The notes under the pieces were generated by a model. That model was not told where the DNA came from. It searched no databases and worked only from the letters and a program-made list of their open reading frames with translations. Positions 8,233-29,182 of a stretch of DNA of 32,306 bases are shown piece by piece. The position numbers were made by a program, and so were the translations under genes. Every line of letters starts with the position of its first letter. Position 1 is the stretch's first letter. Origin of the DNA: a virus (taxonomy: Duplodnaviria > Caudoviricetes); IMG/VR virus record IMGVR_UViG_3300038393_000409, positions 1 to 32,306 of that record; one strand, given 5' to 3'.

Positions 8233-8769
8233 ATGACAGATGAGATAGACGCTATTCCTCAGGGAAATCTCCATGAGATCGTAAAGAGCAGAGCGGCTCT
8301 TTTGAAACCGTGCGAGGAATTTGATTTCACTAATCCTCAAGTTGATCCGATCCAGTTAGCCGCAGATCTCGTTAAGACGATGTATGCGTATAATGGCATT
8401 GGTCTAGCTGCTAATCAGATCGGTGTTCCATACCGCGTTTTTGCTATGCGAACTGCGCCGAAAAATACTGTAGTCTTCAATCCCAAGATCATTCACTACG
8501 AACCGGAAACCGAGCTTCTAGAAGAAGGTTGTTTGTCATTTCCTGGTTACGTTGTCAAGATAAAGAGATATAAACTCATTCGAGTTCGCTTCTCCTATCC
8601 AAACGGTGAAGTGAAGACAGAAACCTACAAGGGATTAACATCTCGTGTTTTTCAACACGAGATGGAGCATTTAAACGGACAGATATTCTACGACAACGCA
8701 TCTAAGTATCACCGCGATCAAGCGGATCGTCGATTTAAGAAATATGAGAGGAATAAGAAAGCAGCATGA
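8233..8769 (+). CDS. def: Peptide deformylase
   Basis: GIGLAANQIG, EGCLSFP and QHEMEHLNG motifs. Confidence 0.95.
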   Translation: MTDEIDAIPQGNLHEIVKSRAALLKPCEEFDFTNPQVDPIQLAADLVKTMYAYNGIGLAANQIGVPYRVFAMRTAPKNTVVFNPKIIHYEPETELLEEGCLSFPGYVVKIKRYKLIRVRFSYPNGEVKTETYKGLTSRVFQHEMEHLNGQIFYDNASKYHRDQADRRFKKYERNKKAA

Positions 8770-21337: not shown

Positions 21338-21769
21338 TTAGCCATTTTCATCCCGAAATGATCCATCTGGAAAGATTATCCGGATCATCCTGCCTCTTTT
21401 TCTCGAATACCGAATAGTGTACCACGTACCAGATCTAAGTTGCTCCAGATATTGAGCCGGAGTAGCTATCATTCTCAGAGCTTCGCTGACTATGTCTCGA
21501 TTTCTCGGTAGATAGTCCCGTAAGATCCGAGACTCATCGCCTAAAACGAACGCTCTCTTTGTATGATTGATGGGAGGATGAACTATGATCCTCCAGTGAG
21601 GACAGACTTCTTTAACGATGAAGTGCGCTTGTTCATCGGAACCTATGCAGTCTCCATGATGAAACTCAGTTGGAAATTGTTTTGAATCCCAGGATATGAT
21701 AGTCTCAGCGAACGCTACTCTCTGAGCTTTGCTCATTCCGTTTTGATTTCCAGTGAATCCTATCTTCAT
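21338..21769 (-). CDS. SLOG-family (DprA/YspA-like) nucleotide-binding protein
   Basis: KIGFTG, HHGDCIG.DE.AH, YL.RNRDIV and SGTW.TIRY motifs. Confidence 0.75.
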   Translation of the reverse strand: MKIGFTGNQNGMSKAQRVAFAETIISWDSKQFPTEFHHGDCIGSDEQAHFIVKEVCPHWRIIVHPPINHTKRAFVLGDESRILRDYLPRNRDIVSEALRMIATPAQYLEQLRSGTWYTIRYSRKRGRMIRIIFPDGSFRDENG

Positions 21770-22299: not shown

Positions 22300-22560
22300 T
22301 TACGCGATGTCGATTACTCGTCCAGTGGAATCGAGCGCGCGTGCTCTTCTGCCTGGAACTTTTCTGACTTCTTCTCGAAGCCGAACACTTACGGCGTTGA
22401 TGTTAGGTACCGATGTTCCAACTAGTGCCCATTGGAAAGTGTTGGGTTCCATAACCTCGATTCTGACTGGATCAAGGTTCGGGTGATCGGAGTCTATGTA
22501 TGAACCGCTTCCAAAGAGCCCATAAAAAGCTCCTCTAAGCATGTCTGACAAGATACTCAT
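22300..22560 (-). CDS. Hypothetical protein
   Basis: AAGGAG RBS on the minus strand; RARALD..G.VID.. C-terminus. Confidence 0.7.
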   Translation of the reverse strand: MSILSDMLRGAFYGLFGSGSYIDSDHPNLDPVRIEVMEPNTFQWALVGTSVPNINAVSVRLREEVRKVPGRRARALDSTGRVIDIA

Positions 22561-22648
22561 GATCTTTCTCCTTCTAGATCATACATATACCTTATCATCG
22601 GCATTGTACAGGGATGAGTGTTAACTATTTTACGGTCCTGAACAATGA

Positions 22649-22677
22649 GTTCACGAATGGTTATTTAGGCGTATAAT
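22649..22677 (+). promoter_or_regulatory. Early sigma70-type promoter for the WxSS..C operon
   Basis: GTTCAC (22649-22654)-N17-TATAAT (22672-22677), then a GAGGA RBS before 22707. Confidence 0.7.
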
Positions 22678-22706
22678 ATAGACTATCATTACAGAGAAGA
22701 GGAAAG

Positions 22707-22958
22707 ATGGACAGGCAGGAAGCGAAAAAAAAGATCAGTGAGCTGAAGACTCAGGCGAAAGCTCTACTAAAGGAAGCAACCAAGATCGCTGACTTGCATG
22801 AAATCTCATTTGATTTCATGCCGAGTACGTTGGGTACATATCATCCGCGTGAGCTGATCTGGCAAGCGTCGAGTGGATGCGAATGGGAAACGTCAGATGA
22901 ATGGGCAGAAGCTCATTGGTCTCATGAACACTTTGACTGGCAAGCGTCGACTTGCTGA
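22707..22958 (+). CDS. Small protein, WxSS..C paralogue 1
   Basis: Helical N-terminus, IADLHEISF, GTYHP, internal WQASSGC and terminal WQASTC*. Confidence 0.8.
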   Translation: MDRQEAKKKISELKTQAKALLKEATKIADLHEISFDFMPSTLGTYHPRELIWQASSGCEWETSDEWAEAHWSHEHFDWQASTC

Positions 22959-22969
22959 TGGAGAGTAAG

Positions 22970-23200
22970 ATGGAAGTTAATAAACAGGAATACGCTAAAA
23001 AGAAGTTCGCGGAGATTCGTAAGCAGATTCAGGAACTGATCGACACTGCTCAAAAAATTGCCGATGAGACTGGTGAGGAGTTTTTCTTCGAACCGAATAA
23101 CATTGGTACATACTACCCAATTGGGTCAAAGGACAACCCGAACGGTAGCGATGGCGAGTGGTATCCTTCATCTTGGTCGTCTTCATCGATCTACTGCTGA
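22970..23200 (+). CDS. Small protein, WxSS..C paralogue 2
   Basis: GGAGAG RBS; IADETGEEF, GTYYP, terminal WYPSSWSSSSIYC*. Confidence 0.8.
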   Translation: MEVNKQEYAKKKFAEIRKQIQELIDTAQKIADETGEEFFFEPNNIGTYYPIGSKDNPNGSDGEWYPSSWSSSSIYC

Positions 23201-23208
23201 GAAATGTG

Positions 23209-23544
23209 ATGTTAGATAAGCGTATAGAAGCTAACATCAAGATCAGCAAGATCATAGAAGAGATCGAAGCAAAATGGGATGATGCTAAGCGTATAGCAGA
23301 TGAATCTGGTGTATCATTTAAGTACACCAGCCCGGACGGTGATCATTCAGGATTTTATTATCCAAAGCGTCCTGATGATTGGGTAGTCTGGAATGATTAC
23401 GATGATGATCTTCCGGAAGGCTATGAAGAAGATCCGAATAAAAATCATCCAGAGTATGAATACTATCATCCGTGGAACAACTGCGGAGAGTATGAACACA
23501 ACTGGAATCACGGAAATTGGATCAGTTCAAGTGAAAGATGTTAA
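23209..23544 (+). CDS. Small protein, WxSS..C paralogue 3
   Basis: IADESGVSF, GFYYP, acidic/aromatic linker, terminal WISSSERC*. Confidence 0.8.
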   Translation: MLDKRIEANIKISKIIEEIEAKWDDAKRIADESGVSFKYTSPDGDHSGFYYPKRPDDWVVWNDYDDDLPEGYEEDPNKNHPEYEYYHPWNNCGEYEHNWNHGNWISSSERC

Positions 23545-23547
23545 GAA

Positions 23548-23736
23548 GTGAGTATTCTCGATGATGTGTCGTCTTCTGTTGCTGGCGCGATAGAAGACGT
23601 CATGGATAAGTATGAAGATCGATACTTCATTAGAGATTCAAAAAAAATCGGTGATGTTCATTACTACGATTTTATGATTGATGGTGAAAAATTTACTGTT
23701 GTCATTCAACGACATCGAGAGGATAACGATGACTAA
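23548..23736 (+). CDS. Small hypothetical protein (unrelated to the paralogues)
   Basis: GTG start; fills the gap and overlaps the next start. Confidence 0.55.
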   Translation: MSILDDVSSSVAGAIEDVMDKYEDRYFIRDSKKIGDVHYYDFMIDGEKFTVVIQRHREDNDD

Positions 23737-24013
23737 AGACGAAGCGCTCTCGAAGCTCAAAGGAATTGACGTTGAGCTTCGAGATTATGTGAAGAAAAAG
23801 ATCCATGAAATTGAAGATATTGCCGATGAACATGGAATCATCGTTCGCTTCAATGGTCTTCCTCCATACGATGAATATGGAAACTCTGGGTATTATTTTC
23901 CGGTTCAATCGGATGGAACACCATGGTATAGTTCAGACATGCGGAATGAATATTGGCCTCTCGAAGGGCATGGTGCCTTAGAGGGTTGGCTATCATCAGA
24001 TGCAGGTTGCTGA
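23729..24013 (+). CDS. Small protein, WxSS..C paralogue 4
   Basis: GAGG RBS; IADEHGIIV, GYYFP, internal WYSS, terminal WLSSDAGC*. Confidence 0.8.
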   Translation: MTKDEALSKLKGIDVELRDYVKKKIHEIEDIADEHGIIVRFNGLPPYDEYGNSGYYFPVQSDGTPWYSSDMRNEYWPLEGHGALEGWLSSDAGC

Positions 24014-24014
24014 C

Positions 24015-25019
24015 ATGCTCATCATTGGTTCTCATGCACTCATTGCTCACGGCGTTCGTCTGGGGAGAATTCCCTCAGATGTTGACGCTATCGCTACGAT
24101 GGATGAAATCAACGATTTTCGAGATCGTCTTCGGGAAAAAAACATCAGTTTTCATGTTGATGATTCTCGACTGAAGAAGATTATCATTCATCTTCATGTG
24201 AGAGGTGCCAAGCCGATTGAGTTTGAAATCTCAGATCCGATCGAGAATCCAACTGGATGGGAACTAAAAAGAACAGACCGAGCGCGGTTTACGGAGTTTC
24301 GTGATAAGCTTTTAAACGATCTGTTTGGTGTCGTTCGTTTCGCAGACCCGAACGTAGTTCTAACACTGAAGTTGTCTCATCGCTACCTGAAGAACAATCC
24401 TCATTTTAGGAAAACGATGGACGACATCTTGGCTCTGAGGGGACTTGGTTACAGCGTACCCCCTGAGCTTCAGGATTGGTTCAAGAGACGTGAGAAAGCA
24501 ACGTACTACTATAAACACCCGTCCCTTGAACGGAATAAGAAGCAGTTCTTCTCGGGTGATGGTGTCGAGTACAAGTATGAGCACGACGACATCCATGCAG
24601 CTTTAGCCACTCTTCCAGATCCAGATTGGCCATTTTGCATGGATGAAGACATGCAAAAAACTTCTCCAGCGTACAAGTACTTTCAAGCCGACGGCGCAGA
24701 AGTTAAGACTGATAAGAAGAAGTTTTTTGATCTTCCAACGCACGTTAAGCTTTTATCAGTTCTTGAGGAGTCCTACGTTCTCGCTCTGGAGCGCAGTCAG
24801 ATTCCGTGCAACTTCGAGATCGCACCGAGGACTTCGTTCTTGATCGCTCTGGAGAAGGTCTGCACCTCGATTACCTCCGGATGGTGGAGGGAGTACGCCT
24901 GGGAACACTACTACCAAGTTCTGGCTATGTACAACGATGACTATGTAGCCCGCTTCATCAAGGCTGAAGCGGAAGGTCGAGTTCGTCTTTATCAGGGAAA
25001 CAAGGAATTAGTATCATGA
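24015..25019 (+). CDS. Pol-beta-superfamily nucleotidyltransferase-like protein with large helical C-terminal domain
   Basis: IIGSHAL...SDVD (hG[GS]-x-DxD) at the N-terminus; K.SHRY...F.K...D, HDDIH, EE..VLALER and LEKVCTSITSGW.R motifs. Confidence 0.7.
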   Translation: MLIIGSHALIAHGVRLGRIPSDVDAIATMDEINDFRDRLREKNISFHVDDSRLKKIIIHLHVRGAKPIEFEISDPIENPTGWELKRTDRARFTEFRDKLLNDLFGVVRFADPNVVLTLKLSHRYLKNNPHFRKTMDDILALRGLGYSVPPELQDWFKRREKATYYYKHPSLERNKKQFFSGDGVEYKYEHDDIHAALATLPDPDWPFCMDEDMQKTSPAYKYFQADGAEVKTDKKKFFDLPTHVKLLSVLEESYVLALERSQIPCNFEIAPRTSFLIALEKVCTSITSGWWREYAWEHYYQVLAMYNDDYVARFIKAEAEGRVRLYQGNKELVS

Positions 25020-25171
25020 ATACCGAAGTGATCGCAGTTTTAATCGTTGTTAGCGTTGTAACAGCTCTTGCAAAGCATGGCCTAATCAATGATGAGAATC
25101 TGTCTCAGGAAGAAGCTAACGTAATATTTGATTCAATATCCAAGGATATCGTAGCGATCTTGGGTGAGTAA
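25016..25171 (+). CDS. Small protein with hydrophobic N-terminus, 51 aa (not in ORF track)
   Basis: ATGA coupling, AAGGA RBS; MNTEVIAVLIVVSVVTALAKHG...ILGE*. Confidence 0.6.
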   Translation: MNTEVIAVLIVVSVVTALAKHGLINDENLSQEEANVIFDSISKDIVAILGE

Positions 25172-25172
25172 A

Positions 25173-25889
25173 ATGAAAACGCTTGCGATCGGTGACGTTC
25201 ACGGATGCCTTGATCAACTCAAGGCACTCATTGCAGCTTATGAAAAGAACTTTCCAAGTGAGGAGACTCGCTACGTCTTCATCGGTGACTACATCGACCG
25301 CGGTCCGGATTCAAAGGGAGTGCTCGATTTCTCTCGTCGTATGAAGGAGAAGGGAGAGACCATTCGCCTGATGGGAAATCACGAGAAGATGCTCTGGGAA
25401 GCGTACTTTGGAGACAATCACTCTCAATACCAGTGGCAGGCATCGTACGGTGATACGATGGACTCATTTGGAGTTCAGGAGATCTATAACATTCCTCGTT
25501 CCTACATCGAGGAGATGATGAATCTGCCGTATTTCTTTAACGATGGTCTGAGAACGTTCGTCCACGCAGGCATCCAGCGGAGCCTTCGTCTCTCGATGGA
25601 TACTCAGAACAAAGATTATATGGTCTGGGCACGCGATGAGTTTATGCTTGACAATCGTCTAGATGGCGGATTCGTCGTTCACGGTCACACTCCGCTACAC
25701 AGCGATTGGCCCGATCTTCACCATAACCGTCTTAATCTCGACACTGCGTGTGTATTTAATGGTGTTTTGACTGGAGCGGTGTTCAATGACGTCGACGTCA
25801 AGCCCACTCACTTTATTAATCATCATGGGTCTATTGTAGAAGTCGTTAATAAGCCTACACTGCAGGATTTACTTCAGAACAATGCGTGA
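25173..25889 (+). CDS. PPP-family metallophosphoesterase (Ser/Thr phosphatase/ApaH-like)
   Basis: GDVHG, GDYIDRGPDS, GNHE, FVHAG, HGHTP, DT(A) motifs. Confidence 0.92.
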   Translation: MKTLAIGDVHGCLDQLKALIAAYEKNFPSEETRYVFIGDYIDRGPDSKGVLDFSRRMKEKGETIRLMGNHEKMLWEAYFGDNHSQYQWQASYGDTMDSFGVQEIYNIPRSYIEEMMNLPYFFNDGLRTFVHAGIQRSLRLSMDTQNKDYMVWARDEFMLDNRLDGGFVVHGHTPLHSDWPDLHHNRLNLDTACVFNGVLTGAVFNDVDVKPTHFINHHGSIVEVVNKPTLQDLLQNNA

Positions 25890-26865
25890 CAAGAAGACTA
25901 TCTTTAAGATCAAGCACGGCTCGCATCTCTACGGGACGAATACTGAATCGTCTGATCTCGATCTGAAGGAAGTTCACCTTCCCTCGGGTCGAGACATTGT
26001 TCTGCAGCGAGCTAAGAAAGCCTACGACAACTCAAAGCCTAAGGAGCACGGCGAAAAGAACACCTCAGATGACGTAGATATCCAGAGTTTCTCGATTCAT
26101 AAACTATGCGATATGCTAGTATCCGGCGATATCATTGGTATGGAGATGATCTACGCTCCTTCTCAGAACATCATTTTCAAAGACTCCCTCTACGACATCA
26201 TTCTAGATAATAAGAACATCTTTCTTTCTAGGAAAGTAGACGGTTACGTAGGATACTGCAGGCAGCAAGCAAATAAGTATGGAATCCGAGGTTCACGTGT
26301 CGCGGCTGCCAGAGAAGTTCTTCAGACGCTCGAGTACTATGAAAGCATCTCTCCTAAGGAGAAGCTTCAGGAACTCTATATCATACTTCAGAATCTATCA
26401 GATAGCGTGGAGCACTGCTCGATCGCGAGCATTCCGAACGGCGCACACGGCACACACATGCTGCACTTCGTCTGCTGCGACCGTAAAGTTCCGTTTACGA
26501 TTAAGATCGAGGATGCTTGTAAAATCTACCGACGTGTTTACAATGAGTACGGTGATCGGGCAAAGCAAGCGGAGACGAATCAGGGAATCGATTGGAAAGC
26601 TCTATCGCACGCGATTCGCGTAGGTGAACAGGCGATCGAGCTTCTAGATACAAGTCAAATCACGTTTCCCAGACAGAACGCAGATAAGCTCTTGAGAATC
26701 AAGCGCGGTGAAGTTCCATATAAAGCGATAGCCGATGAACTCGATAAATTATTAACAGATGTTGAAGAAGCGAGCGCTCGATCTTCACTCCCTGAAACAG
26801 CTGATATGCGTAAGATCGAGGAACTAATCGTGGAACTCTATCGTCAGCAAGTAATTGGAGATTAA
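25882..26865 (+). CDS. Pol-beta-superfamily nucleotidyltransferase (RlaP/Nuc-transf-like)
   Basis: HGSHLYGTNT..SDLD, GY...QA.KY, DWKALSHA.R, LL.IK.G motifs. Confidence 0.85.
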   Translation: MRDKKTIFKIKHGSHLYGTNTESSDLDLKEVHLPSGRDIVLQRAKKAYDNSKPKEHGEKNTSDDVDIQSFSIHKLCDMLVSGDIIGMEMIYAPSQNIIFKDSLYDIILDNKNIFLSRKVDGYVGYCRQQANKYGIRGSRVAAAREVLQTLEYYESISPKEKLQELYIILQNLSDSVEHCSIASIPNGAHGTHMLHFVCCDRKVPFTIKIEDACKIYRRVYNEYGDRAKQAETNQGIDWKALSHAIRVGEQAIELLDTSQITFPRQNADKLLRIKRGEVPYKAIADELDKLLTDVEEASARSSLPETADMRKIEELIVELYRQQVIGD

Positions 26866-26931
26866 AAAGAATTCTCATATACGATGTATGGTTTAATATC
26901 GAGTCAGACTAAGGATGCAGGAGGCGATCAC

Positions 26932-27120
26932 TTGAAGCACAGAGTAAAGTTTACAATCAAGAACGTTGACGAGAGTGATCCAAACTTTAAACTGATAGAC
27001 GAGCGATCACAAAAGTTTAAGACGTTCAGCAGCGCGATGTCTTTCGTTCGTGAACTTAAAGCCCGTCTCTCCGGAAAAGAAATCTTAATTGGAACACCCA
27101 TGATTGAGGAATCGAAATGA
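26932..27120 (+). CDS. Small hypothetical protein
   Basis: AGGAGG RBS before the TTG at 26932; coupled to the next gene. Confidence 0.6.
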   Translation: MKHRVKFTIKNVDESDPNFKLIDERSQKFKTFSSAMSFVRELKARLSGKEILIGTPMIEESK

Positions 27121-27479
27121 AGTTCGAGAGTAAGTACGGCATTGGTGACGTCTTCTACTGCCCTCGTTCATATGAACGAGTGCGAGTGATCAAAAAAGAA
27201 ATCGATGGTGAAGTCTGGGAGAGGCAGGAAAAATATCTATCTCCTGAAGTCAAGATACGACGGATAGTTGGTATTGAAGCTTCAGTAAACGATCACGGTG
27301 AAGTCTCGATGTGCTACCGTTGCGAGACGAAGCGCGATCCAGCAGATGAATGGTCAGTTGAGGGAATTTTTAGAACTTTCACTGATGAAATGTTCGATCG
27401 CGCTTACGACAACTATGAGAGAGCTATGGATAAAGCTCATGAGTATGCCATTCATAAGAAGCGGGAGTACTTTGGGTAG
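27117..27479 (+). CDS. Hypothetical protein (SKY.IGD N-terminus)
   Basis: GAGG RBS, ATGA overlap. Confidence 0.65.
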   Translation: MKFESKYGIGDVFYCPRSYERVRVIKKEIDGEVWERQEKYLSPEVKIRRIVGIEASVNDHGEVSMCYRCETKRDPADEWSVEGIFRTFTDEMFDRAYDNYERAMDKAHEYAIHKKREYFG

Positions 27480-27486
27480 ATAAATA
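27479..27486 (+). promoter_or_regulatory. Late promoter variant GATAAATA for the spanin genes
   Basis: NATAAATA upstream of a GGAGGAG RBS and lysis-type genes. Confidence 0.55.
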
Positions 27487-27514
27487 CAAAGTACATGGAG
27501 GAGTCACATAAAAG

Positions 27515-27907
27515 ATGTTTTCTGGATTGTTAGCTCGAGTAGCAGCGTTTTTTGCCAGTTCTGCTATTAAATATTGGCTTATTGGAATCGGTGCCGTAGC
27601 GATTGTAGGTACAGTCGGCTGGATGTATTGGTCAGTCACACACACCGCGGCTGAGAATGCTCGACTCACTGCTGAAGTAGCAGCTAAGCAGCGCGTTATT
27701 GAGGAGCAGGATGAGACGATCGCTCACCAAAAAGCACTCATGAAGCTTCAGCAAGCGGCTTCTAAAGAACTCGATGATGAGATATCAGTTCTTGGTGATC
27801 AAGAACACTCGATCAACGAGTGGCTGCAGTCGCCCGATGTTCTAAAGCACGATCGACCCTCTTCGCTTATTCTTAAGAAGACTATTGAGAAACTAGGAGC
27901 TAAGTGA
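27515..27907 (+). CDS. Putative inner-membrane spanin (Rz/PseT.3-like)
   Basis: N-terminal transmembrane helix followed by a coiled coil; directly upstream of a lipoprotein gene. Confidence 0.65.
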   Translation: MFSGLLARVAAFFASSAIKYWLIGIGAVAIVGTVGWMYWSVTHTAAENARLTAEVAAKQRVIEEQDETIAHQKALMKLQQAASKELDDEISVLGDQEHSINEWLQSPDVLKHDRPSSLILKKTIEKLGAK

Positions 27908-28645: not shown

Positions 28646-29182
28646 TTAATTGGGCAACAATAAGCTCTGGATAAGAAGTGTAGTCTTCGGATTACGCTTC
28701 TTTCCTAGTTTTGCGGCTCTCATTTTAGCTTTTGTTTCTTCACTATGCGGTTTACGTTTTTTGCCAGCGGTTGCTAAACGTAATTTTTCTCGATGTTCAG
28801 GTGATTTAGGATTTGGGCGTCCGCGTTTTTTAACACTAATTATCGCTTTAGCTTCTTCGGTGTGTTTCCATCCTCTGCGCCTACCTGTGATACTTACAGC
28901 TTTATTTGTATATAACGAATTTTTCACGACTTTTAATTTTTGATGAAAATATTTCTCTTTAGCTGATGCTTCTTCGTAATTAGAATATTGCGTTAAAATT
29001 ATCGTTTTGAATAATTCGGGATGATTTTTAATTTCATCCCACCAAATACTTCTATAATCGCGGGACGCAACTGATCCACGATAACCTTTCTCGATGCGTT
29101 TTATATCGCAGCAAACGCCGATATAGAAAGGTGGAAGGCGATTGCCTTTATAAATCGTTAAGTAAGTGCAAGAAATTTTCAT
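28646..29182 (-). CDS. Free-standing GIY-YIG/Seg-like homing endonuclease with NUMOD3 repeats (inverted)
   Basis: CTYLT.Y...PPFYIG...GY.GS, E...KE, YTN; KHTEEAKA, SPEHREKL and HSEETKAKMR motifs; AT-rich; minus-strand ATAAATA at 29187-29193. Confidence 0.82.
   Translation of the reverse strand: MKISCTYLTIYKGNRLPPFYIGVCCDIKRIEKGYRGSVASRDYRSIWWDEIKNHPELFKTIILTQYSNYEEASAKEKYFHQKLKVVKNSLYTNKAVSITGRRRGWKHTEEAKAIISVKKRGRPNPKSPEHREKLRLATAGKKRKPHSEETKAKMRAAKLGKKRNPKTTLLIQSLLLPN

Follow-up and report, generated by a model that had tools for sequence, protein, structure and literature searches.

A predicted nucleotidyltransferase and a variable array of small acidic partners form a conserved two-part phage module

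Gene content of the locus

We analysed a window of 32,306 nucleotides from a Caudoviricetes virus (IMG/VR record IMGVR_UViG_3300038393_000409), in which four small ORFs precede an enzyme with a nucleotidyltransferase (NTase) domain (Table 1). All four small ORFs match PHROG 899 (E 4.7e-10 to 4.9e-4). Local alignment scores of the paralogue pairs lie 4.6–18 SD above those of 500 shuffles, and the alignment of the four holds IAD, G-x-Y-x-P, W and C among its invariant columns. The original prediction had described four diverged paralogues with terminal tails and these shared motifs, and both points were confirmed. The 1-nt gap between the fourth stop (ending at 24013) and the enzyme ATG (24015) was found as described. 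A phosphoesterase and a second NTase follow the enzyme, as had been stated, but two ORFs of 62 and 51 aa had been overlooked. Elsewhere among 80 enzyme loci (see below) the 62-aa ORF is present only in the near twin, locus L008, and it is probably a passenger in the array.

Compared with L008, the partners are 66–84% identical with their final 7 residues unchanged, and the enzyme is 94% identical; the near twin has a fifth paralogue. An early promoter had been proposed ahead of the array. A candidate with both hexamers kept in L008 does lie there, but such sites are not more frequent than expected by chance (5 found versus 9.2 expected from shuffles). No terminator-like site was found on the plus strand in 22500–27600.

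Table 1. Features of the array and its neighbours, with positions in the window
Feature	Position	Strand	Basis
Candidate sigma70-like (early-type) promoter, TTCACG-16-TATAAT	22650..22677	+	Consensus match only; both hexamers kept in L008
Partner protein 1, PHROG 899, 83 aa, tail WQASTC, internal copy WQASSGC	22707..22958	+	PHROG match, alignment, shuffle scores
Partner protein 2, PHROG 899, 76 aa, tail WSSSSIYC	22970..23200	+	PHROG match, alignment, shuffle scores
Partner protein 3, PHROG 899, 111 aa, tail WISSSERC	23209..23544	+	PHROG match, alignment, shuffle scores
62-aa ORF between paralogues 3 and 4, no tail, unrelated to the paralogues	23548..23736	+	No PHROG or Pfam match
Partner protein 4, PHROG 899, 94 aa, tail WLSSDAGC	23729..24013	+	PHROG match, shuffle scores
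Core enzyme, 334 aa, NTase domain and DUF7275	24015..25019	+	PHROG 2141, PF23942+PF23940, AF2, fold matches, conservation
51-aa ORF between enzyme and phosphoesterase	25016..25171
Calcineurin-like phosphoesterase	25164..25889	+	PF00149, phrog_246
RlaP-family NTase	25882..26865	+	PF10127, phrog_388

Linkage of the enzyme with two small-protein families

To relate the enzyme to PHROG 899 (partner family A), we used a clade A set of 80 enzyme loci, the best of 196, which includes many close T4-like relatives and is therefore not a set of independent loci. By the tail motif, 69 of the 80 loci were linked to the family, with 179 same-strand copies; with the profile added, 73/80 had same-strand partner copies within 5 kb. 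Five further loci hold copies on the opposite strand or elsewhere in the genome. Among the seven without a same-strand copy, four have a conserved opposite-strand ORF ending in YW[ED]DSGC, one has two partner members elsewhere in the genome, and two have fewer than 360 bases upstream. Because the partner alignment has no conserved stretches for a locus scan, the reverse direction was scanned with a DNA pattern of the tail, which favours a single set of codons and a single class of tail. Of the 32 matches to this pattern, four did not lie at the end of an ORF and were removed. The enzyme was in the same genome for 27 of the remaining 28 tail-ending ORFs, and the single miss is a 36%-complete contig. 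The opposite-strand control was imperfect, since 4/5 of its matches are probably real members. Genomes hold up to six diverged partner copies, some 60–100 kb away on different scaffolds, and the tails occur on exchangeable scaffolds.

In a second clade of the enzyme, the partners at 63 of 70 loci belong to a different small-protein family, B, which is unrelated to A; the other seven have at most 462 bases downstream. The partner families are mutually exclusive: A was found at 0/70 B loci and B at 1/80 A loci, 5 kb away. In a quick tree of the enzymes, a single branch separates the two partner types (SH-aLRT 99), and profile comparison found no similarity between the A and B scaffolds. The sister set to PHROG 899 and PHROG 2141 consists of PHROG 6944 and PHROG 8206/18295/13591/16046. 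All of these, like DUF7277+DUF7275, are catalogued families without an assigned function. Natural fusions support the small proteins as dedicated partners of the enzyme; those of enzyme and B are reproducible (4 full-length proteins on 7 contigs), and an A-enzyme fusion occurs on one contig only. The predicted partnership with the 24015 NTase was thus borne out by linkage in both directions and by fusions. The enzyme with its variable array of small acidic partners is a conserved two-part phage module. In the mostly open-access literature searched we found no description of the pair, and DUF7275, DUF7277 and these PHROG numbers were not named there.

No third neighbour gene recurs across lineages within 4–5 kb of the enzyme loci. 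A calcineurin-like phosphoesterase is part of 13/80 clade A and 0/70 second-clade loci, and RlaP of 2/80 and 0/70, which does not support the proposed writer/eraser pair in a five-gene operon. Such an operon, with phosphoesterase and RlaP as fixed parts, would fit the 8/80 loci with a phosphoesterase at most ~530 bases downstream of the enzyme, but these eight represent about three lineages, and we consider it highly improbable. The phosphoesterase is at most a lineage-limited accessory. RlaP is a neighbour outside the module and not linked to it. The 25882 protein is an ordinary member (PF10127, 45.8 bits versus a cut-off of 23) of a family described in PMC7824862 as acting in RNA repair.

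Conserved motifs of the partner families

Family A members, selected on the body alone, carry W-x-x-S in 165 of 166 cases, and in family B the Ser is present in 145/145 sequences, within G-[WY]-Y-x-S-Y-x-G. Judged by these motifs, an aromatic-x-x-Ser with an invariant Ser is the feature common to both partner families. The original prediction had given Cys as the last residue of the tails, but the terminal Cys is not the common denominator: Cys is not the last residue in 11/166 A members, family B has no conserved Cys, and Ser is shared instead. For the same two reasons, activation of the C-terminal Cys carboxylate was rejected as a general chemistry. Family B partners resemble folded domains, and their Ser is predicted to sit inside such a domain and not at a terminus.

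The original prediction had likened the array to RiPP precursors. RiPP clusters combine a conserved leader with a variable core, in which the motif may be repeated, next to a modifying enzyme; here conservation is found in the helical N-terminal part and again at the very end of the tail, with a variable middle between them. In a RiPP-like maturation the Ser would be nucleotidylated, eliminated to dehydroalanine and closed with a nearby Cys into a thioether ring. This would agree with Ser-x(1-5)-Cys in 163/166 A members, with internal motif copies in 13/172 members (1.2 in shuffles), and with an enzyme Cys283 kept in 105/106 A enzymes. However, Cys283 is also found in 34/34 Limnohabitans-clade enzymes, whose partners are family B, and enzymes of the B clade retain both of their conserved sites (see below) although their partners have no conserved Cys. 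Moreover, no conserved protease or transporter gene lies near the enzyme loci, and no dedicated protease, transporter or RRE recurs as a third gene across lineages within 4–5 kb. Together, this makes such a maturation very improbable. Strict covariation between Cys283 and the partner Cys was rejected.

Fold of the enzyme and a possible reaction at the serine

The only Pfam matches of the 24015 enzyme above cut-off are DUF7277 and DUF7275. Its AF2 model (pLDDT 90) has an N-terminal domain (~1–165) like the Pol-beta NTases of the MenT/AbiEii type, with key residues G5, S6, D22, D24, K119, H122 and K133, which are essentially invariant among 176 aligned enzymes. The predicted Pol-beta-type GS...DxD is present (G5 S6 D22 D24), and the model combines the G-S/G helix start and the DxD metal ligands in an NTase alpha/beta fold that mark this superfamily. 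The best fold matches of the domain are MenT1 (Z 10.9, rmsd 4.0, 158 aligned), MenT3, MenT4, ANT(2'') and LnuA, and nine NTase-fold chains gave Z 8.1–10.9. MenT/AbiEii (DUF1814) toxins are the closest solved fold for residues 1–165 and have the DxD and a catalytic-type lysine in common with it. They share 14–18% identity with the enzyme, which has the DUF7275 domain in addition. In Pfam and PADLOC the enzyme has no AbiEii/DUF1814 sequence-model match; PADLOC gave no match of any kind, and 118 family members gave no relevant NCBIfam match. A sequence search of the PDB returned nothing. In the ESM Atlas the enzyme matched only clusters of DUF7275/7277 and a single one of DUF6036, and partner 2 had no match.

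With MenT1, MenT3 and MenT4 as top folds, the enzyme might be a MenT/AbiEii-like RNA-end NTase for host takeover or tRNA repair, which the small proteins would inhibit as pseudo-substrates, in the manner of antitoxins, or regulate. The antitoxin MenA1 is likewise small and helical (PMC11375011, accessible part), and some enzyme loci adjoin tRNA clusters or RNA ligases. However, one inhibitor would be enough, and the diverged copies, up to six per genome and partly distant, argue against this reading, and so does the absence of a conserved RNA-repair gene next to the enzyme. Unlike MenT/AbiEii-MenA, the enzyme has multi-copy Ser-bearing partners and occurs almost only in phages. The cis phospho-acceptor position of MenT, two residues before DxD, is Pro20 here and mostly Pro or Asn in the family, with Ser/Thr in 6/93 A and 13/65 B enzymes parsed. 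We regard this alternative as unlikely. According to the accessible part of PMC11375011, MenT1 and MenT3 auto-phosphorylate Ser/Thr at this very position. The enzyme could therefore be an NTase-fold kinase that moves gamma-phosphate onto the partner Ser in trans, a two-gene version of this reaction, since the cis position is mostly not Ser/Thr while the partner offers an invariant Ser. Trans-phosphorylation by a MenT fold was not found in that part of the paper, and the enzyme retains all the metal-site and lysine residues of an NTase, so that we consider the kinase quite improbable.

The C-terminal DUF7275 domain is predicted with confidence (pLDDT 91.5), and H190, D191, H194, E251, E252, E259 and R260 (HDxxH/EE/ER) are invariant in both enzyme clades. 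Foldseek, the one structural search applied, found no match for it in the PDB at E<=0.001, and its fold may be a known one. This His/Glu-rich second domain could attach a small protein, activated at the NTase site, to a protein or nucleic acid of the host, much like a ubiquitin tag but with a phosphodiester linkage; SidE offers an analogy. The exchangeable scaffolds of the tails, the invariant residues and the confident fold speak for such a two-step ligation. Its target is not known, the family B Ser lies within a predicted folded domain and not at an end, and a free C-terminal Cys is evidently not needed. We rate it as decidedly improbable.

Our preferred reading, tentative and somewhat short of an even chance, is that the enzyme nucleotidylates the invariant Ser of each partner's aromatic-x-x-Ser in trans. 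It builds on the observed pairing, the Ser kept in two unrelated partner families, the intact NTase motifs and the fusions. The NTase would transfer an NMP, possibly grown to a short chain, onto this Ser as the acceptor, and the C-terminal domain may bind metal and hold or further process the client. The module would be expressed early in infection, and its tagged partners would counter different host factors, most probably those of defence, as mimics of nucleic-acid ends or as decoys. Partner bodies would evolve quickly and be gained and lost, with their tails unchanged. A link to defence did not emerge from PADLOC, which gave no match, or from the neighbourhood, where no third gene is conserved. 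The nearest solved folds act on tRNA ends or antibiotics and not on proteins, which counts against nucleotidylation. As MenT-type folds can move gamma-phosphate onto Ser/Thr (PMC11375011, accessible part), the mark may be a phosphate and not NMP, and an invariant Ser suits a pseudo-substrate inhibitor equally well. Nucleotidylation also accounts for neither the near-invariant Cys after the Ser (163/166 A members) nor the second conserved site. A broader reading, which we find doubtful, is a tagging and ligation machine: a two-site enzyme (NTase and metal-binding domain) would charge interchangeable small proteins on Ser with a nucleotide or oligonucleotide and deploy or ligate them against host targets, with two unrelated client scaffolds recruited via one aromatic-x-x-Ser motif. 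Overall, the observation behind the original prediction was confirmed and its interpretation partly supported.

Known NTases that modify a hydroxyl group of a protein with NMP or oligo-NMP include HEPN/MNT, in which MntA modifies a HepT Tyr, and Hailong HalB. Both belong to hosts, have a single substrate and use Tyr as acceptor, and both are absent from the fold matches of the enzyme. Gad2, compared by description only, is likewise an NTase-fold phage protein, predicted as an NTase and with a tested anti-Gabija role (bioRxiv 10.1101/2023.05.01.538930, accessible part); unlike the enzyme, it has 400 aa and acts as a single gene, with no partner array described in that part. No match in NCBIfam or PADLOC linked it to the enzyme, the presence of a Gad2 model in NCBIfam being unconfirmed. 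If the Ser is modified as predicted, the module would be a protein-tagging system not described before, which phages may use to counter the defences of the host. Phages would then own a dedicated writer for fast-evolving small effectors, an expandable toolkit and not a single anti-defence protein, and a domain without a Foldseek match among solved structures would gain a function.

The enzyme was detected in 736 of 50,697 GenBank phage records, including those of the laboratory phages RB69, KVP40 and 44RR. In RB69 the enzyme is RB69ORF134c, with RB69ORF136c and RB69ORF137c as partners. Among representatives at 50% identity, the enzyme has 1,726 relatives. It is almost confined to phages, with 5 loci in 185,579 prokaryote genomes. 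The enzyme family also has relatives in giant eukaryotic viruses.

The small-protein array and its enzyme

Judging by its translated ORFs (clamp loader, RegA, family-B polymerase), the window, a virus record of 32,306 bases, presumably covers the part of a T4-like phage genome that encodes replication functions. A near twin in IMG/VR (L005/L008) encodes an enzyme with 94% identity. The original prediction placed four tail-bearing paralogues immediately ahead of a nucleotidyltransferase (NTase), and this arrangement was borne out. All four small ORFs (83, 76, 111 and 94 aa, with tails WQASTC, WSSSSIYC, WISSSERC and WLSSDAGC) match PHROG 899, and their mutual similarity exceeds that of shuffled sequences (z 4.6-18). 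The stop codon of the fourth lies one base ahead of the ATG of the 334-aa enzyme (PHROG 2141, Pfam DUF7277+DUF7275). Absent from that account were a 62-aa ORF within the array and a 51-aa ORF 3′ of the enzyme, listed in the table with other local features.

Features of the window and of compared loci
Feature	Position	Strand	Remarks
Promoter-like site	22650-22677		Consensus match only; kept in twin
Further site containing GCGTATAAT, shared with the candidate promoter that precedes the array	about 8383-8395	+
62-aa ORF	23548-23736	+	No family match; among 80 loci, elsewhere only in near twin, 51% identical
51-aa ORF	25016-25171	+	No family match; elsewhere only in near twin, 90% identical
143-aa ORF	21338-21769	-	Weak phrog_289 match (E 3.7e-5); 97% conserved in twin; presumably a SLOG/DprA-type nucleotide-binding domain
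178-aa ORF	28646-29182	-	Directly ahead of DNA polymerase gene; resembles a homing endonuclease of the GIY-YIG type, with basic repeats
Split RB69 paralogue (RB69ORF139c/138c)	L215:1048-1354		Two ORFs, tail WVSSPALC, beside two intact copies
Vibrio phage K412 locus	L145:63-2178		Short-clade enzyme three genes 3′ of nicotinamide phosphoribosyltransferase and PRPP synthase; single case
Acinetobacter phage Ac42 enzyme	L082:4380-5615		Unrelated N-terminal extension, about 95 aa
Acinetobacter phage phi1_092060 (PQ885451.1) enzyme homologue	L002:2992-3945		Labelled 'DefenseFinder protein' in GenBank

Linkage of the enzyme with two partner families

Linkage was assessed in 80 enzyme loci from IMG/VR, the best of 196, using the motif W-x(1,2)-S-x(0,4)-C at the C-terminal end of small ORFs. 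Same-strand ORFs with this ending were present in 69/80 loci; the motif occurred in 179 of 3,730 small ORFs on the enzyme strand versus 5 of 4,370 on the opposite strand. A profile search added four loci. The proposed linkage to these PHROG 899 proteins (family A) thus held in 73/80 loci, a count that does not represent independent events because many loci are close relatives, as is also true of the reverse counts below. Among the remaining seven, four are related to one another and share a conserved ORF on the other strand with the tail YW[ED]DSGC, and the one whole genome examined among them has a further ORF ending in WCSSSMEC; another (L038) has two family A members elsewhere in the genome, and two have <360 bases of upstream sequence. 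The same pairing was seen in named phages of Myxococcus, Acinetobacter, Ralstonia, Xanthomonas, Aeromonas, Klebsiella and E. coli (RB69). In the reverse direction, a search with a DNA pattern taken from the tail yielded 32 matches, 28 of them at an ORF end. The enzyme lies within 6 kb of 23 of these ORFs and elsewhere in the record for four of the other five, giving 27/28; the fifth is in a record that is 36% complete. Three of these distant members, close relatives of one another, bear the tail on a different protein scaffold and lie 60-100 kb from the enzyme.

Phages of Gordonia, Streptomyces, Vibrio and Limnohabitans encode more distant matches to the enzyme (PHROG 6944-like, 250-270 aa), in which the motifs are retained but which have no PHROG 899 neighbour. 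This sister clade is accompanied by small, acidic family B proteins (PHROG 8206/18295/13591/16046), with 156 copies in 63/70 loci, essentially all 3′ of the enzyme on the same strand, or fused to it; in the seven loci without them the sequence ends within 462 bases. The two families are mutually exclusive across enzyme loci and share no profile similarity, and one branch of a quick enzyme tree without bootstrap separates A- from B-paired enzymes (60 vs 39 rows, SH-aLRT 99). The two-part phage module is real and widespread, and we found no description of it in the literature searched; its chemistry and purpose are predicted.

Fusions of the two parts also occur. A 387-aa enzyme (L181) bears a family B domain at its C-terminus, in a cluster of four full-length members on seven contigs. 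A family A protein fused ahead of the enzyme (P0150) is known from a single contig, where misassembly is a possible cause. A 721-aa protein (P0290) consists of the enzyme followed by a region holding Y-E-D-S-G-C, resembling the short tail class. Longer DUF7275 proteins of Sylvanvirus and Satyrvirus (508 and 571 aa; BFVD A0A3G5AJ90, A0A3G5AE53) are predicted relatives. PADLOC returned no match for the enzyme.

The shared serine and candidate chemistry

A family A profile built without the tail collected 166 members; W-x-x-S lies close to the C-terminus in 165 of them. Cysteine follows soon after in 163 and is C-terminal in 155. In family B, all 145 distinct sequences have serine inside G-[WY]-Y-x-S-Y-x-G. 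Aromatic-x-x-Ser, often preceded by Gly, is common to both families, and the module centres on serine rather than cysteine. Thioether ring formation is highly unlikely in our estimation. On the enzyme side, Cys283 is present in 105/106 clade A, 0/36 actinophage/Vibrio and 34/34 Limnohabitans-type enzymes and is therefore not strictly tied to the partner cysteine.

The AF2 model of the enzyme is confident (pLDDT 90). Its first 165 residues match MenT1 (Foldseek E 9e-5; Z 10.9), with further matches to MenT3, MenT4, ANT(2'') and LnuA and weaker ones to viral poly(A) polymerases. Across 176 enzymes of both clades, G5, S6, D22, D24, K119, H122 and K133 are essentially invariant, as are H190, D191, H194, E251, E252, E259 and R260 of the second domain. 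Folded alone, this domain reached pLDDT 91.5, and Foldseek gave it no match in the PDB. We tentatively favour a mechanism in which the enzyme would modify the invariant serine of its partners in trans, the mark most likely being a nucleotide. Partners acting as pseudo-substrate inhibitors of an RNA-modifying NTase seem unlikely; kinase-like phosphate transfer is distinctly unlikely, and we rate two-step ligation no higher. MenT toxins are reported to auto-phosphorylate a Ser/Thr two residues ahead of DxD (PMC11375011); the enzymes of this module mostly have Pro or Asn there.

Neighbouring genes and turnover of the partners

Iterated profiles placed a calcineurin-like phosphoesterase in 13/80 loci (best 80 of 196), just downstream of the enzyme in eight of them, which come from about three lineages, and RlaP in 2/80; neither was found in the 70 sister-clade loci. 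Both genes are neighbours of the module, which is narrower than originally drawn. These counts speak against the fixed five-gene writer/eraser set first proposed, to which we give hardly any credence; in some lineages the phosphoesterase may be an optional eraser.

The partners are 66-84% identical to those of the twin, with the final seven residues unchanged, while most neighbour genes are 90-97% identical (two are 80% and 51%), and a fifth paralogue is present in the twin. Fixed tails attached to bodies that change quickly and are gained and lost would fit clients in a conflict. Only promoter position, size and turnover point to a putative anti-defence role. Recurrent minus-strand ORFs lie antisense over the enzyme gene in 51/80 (best 80 of 196) and 27/36 loci and cluster by BLAST; they are probably shadow frames of conserved codons.
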